A DNA stretch of 64,000 nucleotides from an uncultured bacterium (GCA_964487845.1 CAZASK010000009.1:5-64004), one strand, 5' to 3'; counted from the first letter of the stretch, positions 31,433-35,806 are shown. Program-made: numbers and translations. The notes: a model not told the origin generated them from the letters alone.

Positions 31433-32305
31433 ATGATAGGAGAATGTATGCAATCTACGAATAATGCAACCACAACTTCAAGCAGTTACTTTTCGCAAGT
31501 GTGTCAACTGCCAAGTAAACTTGTCCATGCTGTAGCGAATTATATGTTTCCAACAAAACCTATTCCAGAAGCGTACAATGGTGCAGTAAGTGGTAAGATT
31601 ATCCCTAAAATTCGTATTATCTATGTAAATGGGATTCTCAACACGCCACTTGATTGTATAACATCGACGCAAAAAATTTCAGACGTTTTCAACCAGTCCA
31701 AAGTCTATTTTACGCATGTTACTTCCCAAGGCGGCGTACGTGATACATGTGCTGTGCTTTCAAGTCTTGCACGAAAAATAGAGTATAAGTCTGCAGCGCA
31801 GCAGGTGCTGATTGACAATATTAGAAAGCGCCTTGCAGATTTAGATTGTGAAGATGAGGAATTGCAAACACGAGAGGTGTCTGAGGAGAAATCGGAGGGC
31901 GTATTACAGGTAGATGATTCTGGTGCCATTGAATGTGGAAAGAGAGTGATTGTAATTACTCATTCGGCTGGAGGACTTTTGCTTGAGCAGGTAAGTAAGC
32001 ATCTATCAGAGAAGGAACGCGAATGTCTTTATGTATATACACTAGGTTCCGCAGTTTTACTTAGTAAAAACATATTTAAAAAAGCAGAAAATCATATCTG
32101 TCATTCCGATAGCATTCCATCGATTTGTGATAAGATATCAAGAAGAAACAGAGAAAAAGATGTGCATAGTAATTATTTTAAATGGCCTCACAAGATAGGT
32201 TCTATAGAGTCGCACTATTTTTTAGGATCTCCCTACCAATCAATGCTTGCTTTGATTAAAGAGTCGGTGCTGCCTTCTGAAAAAGAAGAAGTCTATATTT
32301 CATAA
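31433..32305 (+). CDS. hypothetical protein, possible alpha/beta-hydrolase (lipase-like)
   Basis: IIYVNGILNT, then the nucleophile-elbow-like VIVITHSAGGLL, then later YTLGS and HSDS. By-eye call only. Confidence 0.35.
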   Translation: MIGECMQSTNNATTTSSSYFSQVCQLPSKLVHAVANYMFPTKPIPEAYNGAVSGKIIPKIRIIYVNGILNTPLDCITSTQKISDVFNQSKVYFTHVTSQGGVRDTCAVLSSLARKIEYKSAAQQVLIDNIRKRLADLDCEDEELQTREVSEEKSEGVLQVDDSGAIECGKRVIVITHSAGGLLLEQVSKHLSEKERECLYVYTLGSAVLLSKNIFKKAENHICHSDSIPSICDKISRRNREKDVHSNYFKWPHKIGSIESHYFLGSPYQSMLALIKESVLPSEKEEVYIS

Positions 32306-34087
32306 GATATACTCATTAGCAATAGCTCGGCGATGATGACCATCGAGTACATGAAATATCTGTACCTTTCGTATAGCAAGTTTTGAAAATTGACTGATGG
32401 GAGTATAGAGCAACTTTTTTCCTTGTGTTCGAGCGTATTGTTTGAGTTTTTCCTTAGGAGGATGTGCTGCGACGTAAATGATTACCGGTTTTACTGAATA
32501 ATCGATTGCAGCACACGTAAGTACTTCTGCCTTTGAAGAGCAGACATCATAGTCAGGATCTGTCCATATATCGAGCATTCGCCTTGGAGGATATGACAGG
32601 AGAAATCCTCCGTACGTACATTTTGCAATCCCTGGTCCTATCACATTTTCTTGATAGTTGGTCGCGAAAAATGCCATATCCGATTCTTGTTCATTTTCTC
32701 CAAGCCAGGTGAGCTGCCACGGATATTTTTCGATAGGCTCTTGATCCTCATCGAAGATGACAACAACAGATCCTGCCCCAGCTATTGGTTTACCTGTCGT
32801 TTTTACAAACAGTTTCTTTTCAGTACAATGTCGGATGGTTTCTTTAACATCTACCCCATCTTCTAAACTTGTCGAAAATGGGATACTGCGACTTACTGCC
32901 TCACGTGCTTGAGAGAGGCTCTTTTTTTTGATATAGCGACTAAAATCTTCTACGATACCATCTTCAGGAGTGTGTGAGCACAAAGTAAATGGGTTGAGCG
33001 GGGTAAAGTGAATAGCTTGTTTTTCTTTTTTTAACCGTTTGAGAAAAGAGCTTTTTTTCGATACATTCTTTTTGTGAAACCATATCTGCTTTGATGAACC
33101 CCAAACTTCTTCGATACTTGCTGCTGACTCTGGCAAATTATCTGTGTTACGCAAAAATGGATATTCTACGGCTATTTTCCACACCTCATAGGCAAAATTA
33201 TGATCGATGCAGGACTTGCTAGCGGTGAGCAGTTGGTAAAGGTCTGGCAGGAGTTTTTGTTTGATGTGGGCATACTTACGAAGATAGCGCATGATAAGAG
33301 AGAGCCCGTACACGGGAAACGTGGTTCTTGTTTCTTGTTCATAGGGCAAGATAGCTGCTTTTAAAAGAGAATAGATACATTTTTGTCGATCAAGAGCTTG
33401 CGTGGTGTGGTGATTTCTCCAAGATTCATAGTGTGCTGATATCCATCCATATTCAGCCATAATCGACAATGCGGTCTCTTGAGTGGGTGTAGTGAGTGTT
33501 TTTTTTGTGTACTCTATATGTGGATATGTGACAAATGAGTTTTTATTCAAAAATTGGGAAATGGAGTGTACGTGGCTCATGCCGACTACGATTACTATTT
33601 TTTCATAAGAAAAAGAGAGCTCTTTGAGCCTCCTTGCCATATGCTCTTCTCTTTCATGATCAAGGATATTCGGAGAGAAAGGGTGTCTACGGAGGAGTTG
33701 ATAATATTTTTTGAGACCAATTCGATAGATGGCATATGGATCAGGAATATGATCTTCGTAGAGGGGATATGAACTGACATTTAAATCGATGCAAAATGAG
33801 GCAATACGCATCTCCAAGGCAGATCGTAGTGCTTCAAAGGCTGCGTCACAAGGTTCTGCTAGTAGAATTTTCTTCTCGCCCTTACTATCTTCTGTGTGAA
33901 TGAGAGTAAGATCAGGCAGGCGTGCTGCTGCATGAAGACATTCTTGTTGAAGTGGCTCTGGGAGTTCGACAGCGATGCAGTCTGGTTGTATTTTTTCAAT
34001 TGCCTTGCGAACTTCTACTGCGCATTCCATCGTGTAGTGCAAGATAGGGACAAAGTAAAATGGGGGATTGTCGTCGTAGAGCCGCAT
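32300..34087 (-). CDS. large uncharacterised protein with a TraB/ChaN-like N-terminal module
   Basis: FYFVPILHYTMECAVEVRKAIEKIQPDCIAVELPE and EREEHMARRLKEL...IVIVVGMSHV resemble the TraB/PrgY/GumN pattern (GT.HvS..S...V...I....PD.V.VEL; RE..Ma..l....vvaVvGagH). Lies 21 nt downstream of the AAA_5 ATPase. Confidence 0.4.
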   Translation of the reverse strand: MRLYDDNPPFYFVPILHYTMECAVEVRKAIEKIQPDCIAVELPEPLQQECLHAAARLPDLTLIHTEDSKGEKKILLAEPCDAAFEALRSALEMRIASFCIDLNVSSYPLYEDHIPDPYAIYRIGLKKYYQLLRRHPFSPNILDHEREEHMARRLKELSFSYEKIVIVVGMSHVHSISQFLNKNSFVTYPHIEYTKKTLTTPTQETALSIMAEYGWISAHYESWRNHHTTQALDRQKCIYSLLKAAILPYEQETRTTFPVYGLSLIMRYLRKYAHIKQKLLPDLYQLLTASKSCIDHNFAYEVWKIAVEYPFLRNTDNLPESAASIEEVWGSSKQIWFHKKNVSKKSSFLKRLKKEKQAIHFTPLNPFTLCSHTPEDGIVEDFSRYIKKKSLSQAREAVSRSIPFSTSLEDGVDVKETIRHCTEKKLFVKTTGKPIAGAGSVVVIFDEDQEPIEKYPWQLTWLGENEQESDMAFFATNYQENVIGPGIAKCTYGGFLLSYPPRRMLDIWTDPDYDVCSSKAEVLTCAAIDYSVKPVIIYVAAHPPKEKLKQYARTQGKKLLYTPISQFSKLAIRKVQIFHVLDGHHRRAIANEYIL

Positions 34088-34108
34088 CGGATCCCTTTAG
34101 TCTCTGGA

Positions 34109-34966
34109 TTATGAAAAGGCTATAGCGTCATCGCCAAGAGTCATGACGATGGCTTGCCTGAGCATGTTTTCGATCTCTTTTGGACCCTTCTTGGGTAGAT
34201 TATGTAATCTTTTTGCCGCATAGCGGGCGATATTGATGCCATCACGGATAGTGAAGTTCTCATTGTGGCCATGTGCACGTTGTAGAAAGTGAACAACGTA
34301 GTCGACGATCTCCTCTTCAATGAATGGCAGGTTTTCTTTTAGGATGCGCCTTTCTTCTTCAGCCTCTGGGAAATCAAGGTAGATTTGTGGTTGTAGCCTG
34401 GAGTGGATGTATTCGGGGATCTCGTAGGTGGAAGCGTCTTCATTGGTGGTTACTGCTATGCGAAATTGCGGGTGTGCGCTTATTTTTAAACCAGATACAA
34501 TTGACTCGATATAGCGACGAGCGTCTAAGAGGGGAGCGAGTGAAGCCCATGATTTTTCACTCATGCGGTTGCCTTCATCTAAAATGCAGACTCCGCCACG
34601 AATCATAGCGCTTACAAGTGACGAGGCTACATATCGTATGCCTCCTGTGGAGCTAATAACAGGGGTGATAAGAAGGTCTTCAGGGCGAGTATCCATGGTG
34701 CATTGAAAAATATAGACAGAAGCTCCTATTGCTTTTGCTGCAGCATAGGCGAGTGTGGTTTTCCCAACGCCTGGCTTTCCTACAATCCGTGGATTGAGAG
34801 GAAGGTCATTTTTGTCGATGACGAGCCATGCTGCCAACAGCTGTTCCATCACATCTTGCTGTCCTATCCAATGGAAAGGGAGGTCGTCTGGACAGCTGAG
34901 AGCAAGCTCTACACCTTGAATGGTGATTCTATCTTCTTGCGCAGTTGCTGTCTTGATGTTTGTCAT
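34109..34966 (-). CDS. AAA_5 / MoxR-like ATPase
   Basis: Walker A GKPGVGKTTLA and Walker B CILDEGNRM. Size and layout are typical of CbbQ/NorQ/MoxR-type ATPases. Confidence 0.8.
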   Translation of the reverse strand: MTNIKTATAQEDRITIQGVELALSCPDDLPFHWIGQQDVMEQLLAAWLVIDKNDLPLNPRIVGKPGVGKTTLAYAAAKAIGASVYIFQCTMDTRPEDLLITPVISSTGGIRYVASSLVSAMIRGGVCILDEGNRMSEKSWASLAPLLDARRYIESIVSGLKISAHPQFRIAVTTNEDASTYEIPEYIHSRLQPQIYLDFPEAEEERRILKENLPFIEEEIVDYVVHFLQRAHGHNENFTIRDGINIARYAAKRLHNLPKKGPKEIENMLRQAIVMTLGDDAIAFS

Positions 34967-34975
34967 GTCTATTTT

Positions 34976-35734
34976 CTAACCTTCTTCTGCTTTTTTAGAT
35001 CCATACAGCAGGCCTGCGAGTGCGATGTTGTCTCTTGCATTTGGGAAAAGAGTTTCAATTTGTTGGAGCAACTCTTTTGTCTTTTGCCGCATAGAATTTT
35101 GGCCTACTGGACATCTGCAGGTGATTCTTGCAAAGCCATACATTTTAGCAAAGTCTATAATTTCTCTTTCCGCAACATAGATAAGTGGCCTGATAATGCA
35201 GATGTGATAGCGCTGCATAAAAAGGTTAGGGAGATTGCCTGCGAATTCACCTTTGTGAAAAAGGTTCATTAAAATTGTATGAGCATTGTCATCTTTATGA
35301 TGTCCAAAGGCAATTGTTTTACAGCCCGCTTCTTTTGCTGCTGCAAACAAAAGTGAGCGACGTTCTCTTGAGCAGCTATAGCATTCAAGATTTTCTAATT
35401 TTTTTTGAGATGTGCGTTGTATCAAAGGTACTTCGAGACGGTCACATATTGCTTGAAGATAGCCTTGACCGACTCCTGCTCCACACGAAAATTCACCGCC
35501 GACGTTGATTGCTGTAATTTCGAGAGGTGGCATGCCACGACCTGAAATAGCTTTCAGAAGAAACAAGAGGGTGAGACTGTCTTTTCCTCCGCTGAGAGCT
35601 ACTGCGATTTTAGATCCATTGTCGAGCATGCGAAAGTCAAAGATAGCTTTACGAACCATGCTTTCGAGGCGTTTGCCAAGGCCTGACCAAGGAGGGGTTG
35701 CTATTGGAGCTAGATCATCCATCATGTGATACAC
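34976..35734 (-). CDS. ttcA: TtcA-like PP-loop tRNA 2-thiocytidine synthase
   Basis: PP-loop VALSGGKDSLTLL with cysteine clusters CYSCSRERR and CRCPVG. Confidence 0.8.
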   Translation of the reverse strand: MYHMMDDLAPIATPPWSGLGKRLESMVRKAIFDFRMLDNGSKIAVALSGGKDSLTLLFLLKAISGRGMPPLEITAINVGGEFSCGAGVGQGYLQAICDRLEVPLIQRTSQKKLENLECYSCSRERRSLLFAAAKEAGCKTIAFGHHKDDNAHTILMNLFHKGEFAGNLPNLFMQRYHICIIRPLIYVAEREIIDFAKMYGFARITCRCPVGQNSMRQKTKELLQQIETLFPNARDNIALAGLLYGSKKAEEG

Positions 35735-35806
35735 ATAAAAATAGCATGTATGGTAACTTCTTTAGTTTGCTATGTCAACAACTCAAACGCTTATGAGGAT
35801 CGTATA

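Follow-up and report, generated by a model that had tools for sequence, protein, structure and literature searches.

The three-gene cluster

This study concerns a gene cluster in a 64,000-nucleotide (nt) stretch of DNA from an uncultured bacterium (GCA_964487845.1, CAZASK010000009.1:5-64004), which is called the window here. On the minus strand of the window, three genes encode a TtcA-like PP-loop tRNA thiolase, a MoxR-class AAA_5 ATPase, and a partner protein of 595 amino acids (aa); the last two form the pair with which we are mainly concerned (Table 1). The window is from an environmental member of the Chlamydiota, a placement based on its Chlam_PMP repeats, its ankyrin/LRR and WD40 proteins, and the names of homologues. 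An earlier note, made before any database was searched, had described the three genes as a tightly packed, same-strand operon of unknown function. The packing was borne out by the list of open reading frames (ORFs) and by reading the sequence directly across the gaps, which measure 9 nt between the TtcA-like and ATPase genes (34967-34975) and 21 nt between the ATPase and 595-aa genes (34088-34108). In a consensus scan, the best promoter match on the minus strand lay immediately 5' of the TtcA-like gene, and no terminator-like site was found between the three genes; the base composition is uniform over the region. Since there is one promoter-like match at the head of the cluster and no internal terminator-like site, a single transcript spanning all three genes is plausible, judging from the sequence.

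The ATPase and its partner are conserved as a pair

A first search with the 595-aa protein returned more than 1000 homologues, nearly all of them from the Chlamydiota; no cultured Chlamydiaceae were among the records returned. Counted as cluster representatives at 50% identity, 1523 clusters had an E value below 1e-3 and 377 an E value below 1e-30, and the family is carried by at least 592 species-level genomes. A search started from distant members extended the family to Planctomycetota, Sumerlaeia, Chitinispirillaceae, Desulfuromonadaceae, Promethearchaeota, and Hermodarchaeota. The annotation of the named members is "hypothetical protein" throughout.

The earlier note had made its reading depend on co-occurrence of the ATPase and the large gene in other genomes, and this co-occurrence was found to be conserved. 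Among the 66 chlamydial loci with sufficient upstream sequence, the ATPase gene lies directly 5' of the large gene in 59 under a strict rule, and in 4 more it is overlapping, partial, or 630 nt off (total, ~63/66). The ATPase gene is also directly upstream in all five Desulfuromonadales loci. Furthermore, an AAA_5 gene stands immediately upstream in 9 of 10 distant contexts (loci L082, L083, and L085 to L091), which come from Planctomycetota, Promethearchaeota, Hermodarchaeota, Chitinispirillaceae (Fibrobacterota), and four other bacteria. In these distant pairs the gaps range from -8 to +27 nt, with stop and start codons often overlapping, and the module is probably co-translated. Because the pairing is kept across phyla and across domains, in bacteria and Asgard archaea alike, it is far beyond chance. 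Matrices of pairwise identity, compared between the ATPase and its partner, were strongly correlated (r = 0.95; 0 of 999 Mantel permutations reached the observed value), as would fit a pair inherited as a unit.

The TtcA-like gene behaves differently. It is found upstream on the same strand in 51 of 62 chlamydial loci, directly adjoining in 41, and was next to the pair in none of the 15 non-chlamydial loci (0/5 Desulfuromonadales; 0/10 distant contexts). TtcA is a lineage-specific, chlamydial neighbor that lies outside the conserved module, and its inclusion in the unit is the part of the earlier interpretation that was not upheld. The functional unit, from chlamydiae to Asgard archaea, consists of the ATPase and 595-aa genes without TtcA; we hold the claim of a conserved two-gene module with high confidence. 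In the chlamydial genome of the window this module is probably co-transcribed with the upstream TtcA-like gene.

A third conserved gene was sought and rejected, as no neighbor recurs and the unannotated downstream ORFs of L082 and L085 are unrelated to each other. A HAD hydrolase gene precedes the ATPase in two loci (L079 and L082). No VWA domain was detected in the 595-aa partner or within ~5 kb on either side of the genes in the window, and VWA genes were likewise missing from the ten distant contexts and from the neighbors scanned at four Desulfuromonadales loci. The remark of the earlier note that no VWA partner is visible could in this way be extended to these other contexts.

The second gene encodes a MoxR-class ATPase

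The 285-aa product of the second gene scored 66.4 bits against Pfam AAA_5, above the gathering score of 22 (E value, 3.5e-18), in agreement with its previous assignment to the MoxR/AAA_5 type. Among solved structures, it is closest to the AAA modules of midasin and then to NorQ and CbbQ. The Walker A (GKPGVGKTT) and Walker B (ILDEGNRM) motifs, the sensor-1 residues T173 and N175, and the arginines R190 and R241 are unchanged in seven lineages, and the ATPase appears catalytically competent. Identity among the ATPases of the window chlamydia, Geobacter, Planctomycetota, Fibrobacterota, and Asgard archaea is 52 to 63%, and that of the partner protein over the same lineages is 26 to 40%. Conservation of this strength suggests that the ATPase probably performs a tightly constrained, housekeeping task.

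ATPases outside the Chlamydiota and Geobacter (L082, L083, L085, L086, and L088) carry an acidic C-terminal tail of 30 to 45 extra residues (DFFxxxDDxDLNPD-like), which is missing from the window and Geobacter proteins in the alignment. This tail may serve in regulation or docking and may have been lost from the chlamydial and Geobacter lineages.

The partner protein combines a TraB/Tiki-like domain with a C-terminal domain of no recognized fold

Profile searches placed the 595-aa protein outside any well-characterized family. Its matches to Pfam DUF5682 (PF18934; 2.8e-4, 19.8 bits against a cut-off of 26, model positions 160-207 of 727), Pfam TraB_PrgY_gumN (PF01963; 2.6e-3, 18.1 bits against 26.8), and TIGR00261 traB (3.1e-7, 29.7 bits against 178) are confined to residues 133-182, and beyond these residues no Pfam or NCBIfam match was obtained. 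Of the TraB models, only the motif of the second half is covered (residues 135-182). Weak Pfam matches to DUF5682 occur in 20 of 30 family members. The protein had no match in PADLOC, and searches of the PDB by sequence, with both the single sequence and a profile, returned nothing. An AlphaFold2 model built on 120 homologues had a mean predicted local distance difference test score (pLDDT) of 87.6 and resolved four parts, namely, an N-terminal domain, a helical middle domain, a linker, and a C-terminal domain.

The suggestion that the N-terminus is TraB-like was substantiated by both profile and structure comparisons. Using a diverse family alignment (123 sequences, down to 25% identity; effective number of sequences [Neff], 5.6), hhalign aligned residues 11-281 with residues 5-312 of YehM-type DUF5682 at a probability of 96.2 (E value, 2.1e-9), and the N-domain by itself aligned with DUF5682 over residues 12-179 at a probability of 97 (E value, 8e-11). 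With a chlamydia-only alignment (Neff, 2.4), the match to DUF5682 was not significant (E value, 0.22). This failure is explained by the shallowness of that alignment, significance appearing with the alignment of Neff 5.6. A Foldseek search of BFVD, a library of viral models, with the full model gave a Marseillevirus TraB family protein as top match (E value, 6.9e-6; probability, 1.00), with all 220 target residues aligned. Against the PDB, the same model recovered only BcR135 for the TIKI fold (E value, 2.4), and nothing scored below 0.1. These comparisons support a TraB/Tiki fold for the modeled N-domain.

Tiki, RRSP, and the erythromycin esterases belong to the TIKI superfamily, for which a catalytic constellation of two histidines and two glutamates (2His/2Glu) has been described; ChaN and PMT are non-enzymatic members (PMC6254334). 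In the 595-aa family, His17, Glu41, Arg146, Glu147, and His172 are kept in 76 to 86% of the 123 diverse representatives, and their motifs align with the invariant His, Glu, Arg-Glu, and His of DUF5682. The His and Glu residues of the N-domain appear to correspond to the 2His/2Glu site, which is predicted to be largely preserved. The retention of these Tiki-type residues would suggest a hydrolytic role at least as much as the chaperone-like maturation envisaged in the earlier note.

The remaining ~400 residues match nothing that we recognize, as had been noted before, and hhalign found nothing in DUF5682 that corresponds to the middle or C-terminal part. The alignment with YehM reaches residue 281, inside the all-helical middle domain, but this domain by itself gives no significant match. 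In the linker, residues 346-365 have a pLDDT below 50; its basic character is kept within the Chlamydiota, but over the family at large the segment varies. Conservation in the family is highest in the C-domain, which has the motifs CSxPPED, FSxSLEDGxDxxETIRH, GE[HN]xQESDM, and GPGIxRCxYGGF. When modeled in isolation, it was compact (pLDDT, 89.6; predicted template modeling score, 0.81). Searches of Pfam and NCBIfam and a profile search of the PDB gave nothing for this part of the protein, and Foldseek found no match in the PDB (best E value, 0.21; template modeling score [TM-score], 0.21 or less). The statement that it has no structural relative holds for the PDB and BFVD libraries. A hidden VWA domain was ruled out by the PDB fold search, and an internal duplicate of the N-domain was ruled out by hhalign. 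From its model, the C-domain is a candidate for a new fold and a new protein family, absent from Pfam.

Foldseek matches of the full model or the C-domain to proteasome Rpt and DRTGG domains were discounted, being short or having a TM-score no higher than 0.2. The sole weak structural echo of the last beta-alpha-beta units of the C-domain is the DRTGG domain. The window also encodes an AAA_26/CbiA-like NTPase of 391 aa that contains a DRTGG domain, and no relationship of this protein to the C-domain is implied.

Comparison with known systems

The nearest parallel in gene order is the yehLMPQ cluster of Escherichia coli, which comprises yehL (AAA_5), yehM (DUF5682), yehP (VWA_CoxE), and yehQ (SWIM). 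YehM itself clearly belongs to DUF5682 (2.4e-98), and, as in the chlamydial pair, the gene for an AAA_5 ATPase lies directly 5' of that for a large protein with a TraB-like N-domain, the N-domains being homologous. In contrast, the C-terminal two-thirds of YehM and of the 595-aa protein are unrelated by hhalign, the chlamydial pair has no equivalent of the VWA protein YehP or the SWIM protein YehQ, and the window ATPase shows no significant pairwise BLAST similarity to YehL and is not specifically related to it. On the basis of the YehL-YehM gene order, an AAA_5 ATPase beside a TraB-like domain is a recurring theme. The literature searched held nothing on DUF5682 or on the function of yehL or yehM, and nothing linking MoxR with TraB/Tiki or with chlamydial biology. 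Some E. coli-type DUF5682 entries from read archives seem fused to AAA_5, VWA_CoxE, or SWIM (P0271, P0273, P0280, and P0283); these are probably frameshifts or assembly read-through of yehLMPQ and not true fusions.

CbbQ-CbbO, a Rubisco activase, and NorQ-NorD, which acts in nitric oxide reductase maturation, share with the pair the class and size of the ATPase and the adjacency of the partner gene. However, partners of the CbbO/NorD type have a VWA domain, and the 595-aa partner has neither a VWA domain nor a metal ion-dependent adhesion site (MIDAS), by sequence or fold; it has instead a TraB/Tiki domain and a domain of no recognized fold. To our knowledge, the few MoxR-class cases that have been solved all use a VWA adaptor.

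With the TIKI/TraB/PrgY/erythromycin-esterase/RRSP/ChaN superfamily, the N-domain has in common the fold, and it keeps His and Glu residues that appear to match the catalytic motif; the 595-aa protein adds ~400 residues of other domains. We know of no described member of this superfamily that works with an AAA+ ATPase, and none appeared in the literature searched. By analogy, the pair also resembles McrB-McrC, in which the gene for an AAA_5-type motor is followed by that for a larger effector, often with translational coupling and with no VWA adaptor. McrC, which plugs into the ring, is a PD-(D/E)xK nuclease, and McrB, a GTPase, carries a DNA-binding domain. The McrB and McrC domains are absent from the chlamydial pair, and no sequence relationship was found.

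A proposed role for the pair and its alternatives

The logic of an AAA+ motor with an adaptor or effector is already familiar; the pair itself is uncharacterized and includes a candidate new domain. We propose that the two proteins form an uncharacterized complex for ATP-driven remodeling and hydrolysis, a variant of the MoxR two-component design in which the VWA adaptor has been replaced (probability, roughly 0.6). Modeled on CbbQ-CbbO, NorQ-NorD, and McrB-McrC, the ATPase would form a ring that binds the partner, and ATP hydrolysis would remodel, present, or feed a client. The Tiki-type site would then hydrolyze a peptide or ester bond of the client, which is the version that we prefer, or it would bind a metal or cofactor for the client. 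Docking of the client or of the ring, for which canonical systems use a VWA adaptor domain, would fall to the C-domain. As to the hydrolase mechanism in particular, we put it forward only tentatively.

Several observations weigh against this proposal. Three of the 66 chlamydial loci (L007, L059, and L063) and one of the ten distant contexts, the Sumerlaeia locus L084, have no adjacent ATPase, and plain vertical descent would give the same correlation of identities. For neither TraB nor DUF5682 does the window protein reach the Pfam or NCBIfam cut-off. Structural superposition would be needed to place the second Glu of the 2His/2Glu site, and 14 to 24% of representatives are without one site residue, perhaps in part through misalignment. 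Finally, the superfamily also has members without enzymatic activity, ChaN and PMT among them (PMC6254334).

In a bolder form, the pair would represent an unrecognized class of ATP-dependent hydrolase machine, in which a MoxR ring and a Tiki-type peptidase or esterase are coupled with no VWA adaptor between them. The C-domain, with its novel fold, would dock the substrate or the ring, the design would be conserved in bacteria of the Planctomycetota-Verrucomicrobiota-Chlamydiota (PVC) group, Desulfuromonadales, and Asgard archaea, and the pair would be the minimal core from which four-gene systems of the YehLMPQ type were elaborated. We consider this form unlikely.

A device for handling heme or metal, in which the TraB/ChaN-like domain binds the ligand and the CobS/NorQ-like ATPase inserts or extracts it in the manner of a chelatase or metallochaperone, is decidedly improbable, even though the nearest solved relatives of the ATPase include NorQ and CbbQ and the C-domain has many invariant acidic residues. 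ChaN is generally known as a heme-binding lipoprotein; its membership in the same superfamily is documented (PMC6254334). In two Geobacteraceae genomes, the pair follows same-strand genes for uroporphyrinogen decarboxylase (hemE), an alpha/beta hydrolase, and ferrochelatase (hemH) (L075, 2..3171; L078, 1784..4948), of which the first two in L075 were assigned by size match only and the ferrochelatase by Pfam. A gene for a CCP_MauG di-heme peroxidase precedes the pair in L090. However, the heme genes accompany the pair only in these two related genomes, its neighbors at other Desulfuromonadales loci encode DNA ligase, photolyase, or HAD proteins, and the catalytic-type His and Glu residues are kept, as in enzymatic members of the superfamily.

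We judge it very unlikely that the three genes together form a TtcA maturation system, in which the ATPase and its partner would act on the [4Fe-4S] cluster of the tRNA 2-thiocytidine synthetase, by inserting or repairing it, or on tRNA thiolation in some other way. The short gap and the frequent chlamydial synteny of the TtcA-like gene, the one promoter-like site with no internal terminator, and the tRNA synthetase genes downstream of the pair in two Asgard loci are in its favor, as is the general knowledge that the MoxR relatives NorQ/NorD and CoxD act in metal-center assembly, given the similarity of the ATPase to NorQ. What speaks against it is that the TtcA gene adjoins the pair in none of the five Desulfuromonadales loci and none of the ten distant contexts, where the pair itself persists; synteny in one phylum may be inherited without a functional link.

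A mobile conflict or defense module, consisting of a MoxR-type NTPase and an effector, is more remote still. Several conflict systems are known in general to include MoxR-like ATPases, the matches of the ATPase in PADLOC are weak and generic (TRIP13, 2e-5), L089 and L090 have transposase or antitoxin genes close to the pair, and the distribution over phyla is patchy. Yet the partner has no PADLOC match, each locus examined has a single copy, synteny with ttcA and surE is kept across chlamydial families, the neighbors elsewhere are housekeeping genes, and the ATPase is very highly conserved, unlike fast-evolving defense genes. Lastly, incidental adjacency of the ATPase to an ordinary DUF5682/TraB member, for which the weak Pfam matches to DUF5682 and TraB might speak, has a negligible probability. 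The survey of contexts and the comparison of profiles both contradict it: only residues 12-179 align to DUF5682 with the other ~400 residues unmatched, the scores are under the family cut-offs, and bacterial phyla and Asgard archaea alike retain the adjacency.

MoxR-class ATPases are among the least understood branches of the AAA+ proteins. The pair is core to environmental chlamydiae and reaches Planctomycetota and Asgard archaea; under our proposal of a remodeling and hydrolase complex, it would be a compact alternative to the VWA design. Through the common ATPase and TraB-like domain, it offers a handle on E. coli yehLMPQ, and cultivable carriers exist, such as Geobacter hydrogenophilus DSM 13691.

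Other features of the window

Table 1. Positions of the gene cluster, the parts of the partner protein, and additional features in the window
Feature	Position	Strand	Basis or remarks
Candidate sigma-70-like promoter	35750..35778	-	TTGACA-17-TACCAT, 10/12, consensus match only
TtcA-like PP-loop tRNA thiolase, 252 aa	34976..35734	-	GTG start; ORF list and family matches
MoxR-class AAA_5 ATPase, 285 aa	34109..34966	-	ORF list, AAA_5 match, conserved motifs
595-aa partner protein	32300..34087	-	N-domain, helical domain, linker, C-domain
N-domain, alpha/beta TraB/Tiki fold (predicted), residues 10-201	33485..34060	-	hhalign, Foldseek, residue conservation
Middle domain, all-helical, residues 203-330	33098..33481	-	AlphaFold2 secondary structure
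Linker, Lys/Arg-rich, low-confidence, ~residues 335-370	32978..33085	-	AlphaFold2 model
C-terminal alpha/beta domain, residues 371-595	32303..32977	-	Conservation profile, domain model
290-aa ORF	31433..32305	+	Convergent with the 595-aa gene
SEC-C zinc-motif protein, 118 aa	35726..36082	+	SEC-C match, 1.8e-10
AAA_26/CbiA-like NTPase, 391 aa	11571..12746	-	DRTGG domain
LRR and ankyrin-repeat protein, 1018 aa	14929..17985	+	Eukaryote-like
WD40 beta-propeller, 460 aa	41665..43047	-	Eukaryote-like
Collagen-repeat protein, 280 aa	46184..47026	-	Pfam Collagen, 9.6e-7
Two small overlapping genes	54014..54644	-

The product of the first gene of the cluster matched the PP-loop family (Pfam PF01171; E value, 1e-18), and its top NCBIfam model was TtcA (E value, 5.6e-49). 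TtcA is by far the top family, yet the score of 167 bits does not reach the equivalog cut-off of 272 bits, and the protein is therefore best called "TtcA-like." Its translation contains SGGKDS, CYSC, and CRC, so that the PP-loop motif and the three predicted Cys ligands of the [4Fe-4S] cluster are present. A SEC-C gene is divergent from the TtcA-like gene, and its start overlaps the annotated GTG start by 9 nt; owing to this overlap, the real start is more likely one of the ATG codons 9 to 12 nt downstream of the GTG.

At the other end of the cluster, a 290-aa ORF overlaps the 3' end of the 595-aa gene by 6 nt. It gave no Pfam match and no tblastn match in 80 related loci, and it looks lineage specific; it contains an HSAGG motif reminiscent of the nucleophile elbow of lipases and esterases.

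Elsewhere in the window, a collagen G-x-y repeat tract is followed by a non-repetitive C-terminal domain in a 280-aa protein, which is unusual for a chlamydial genome. The LRR and ankyrin-repeat protein and the WD40 protein, the latter with weak CDC20/Fizzy-like matches, are candidate host interaction effectors. Finally, of the two small overlapping genes, the upstream is a 113-aa ORF with no Pfam match and the downstream has a match to "probable addiction module antidote protein" (2e-14); the two are probably a toxin-antitoxin pair.

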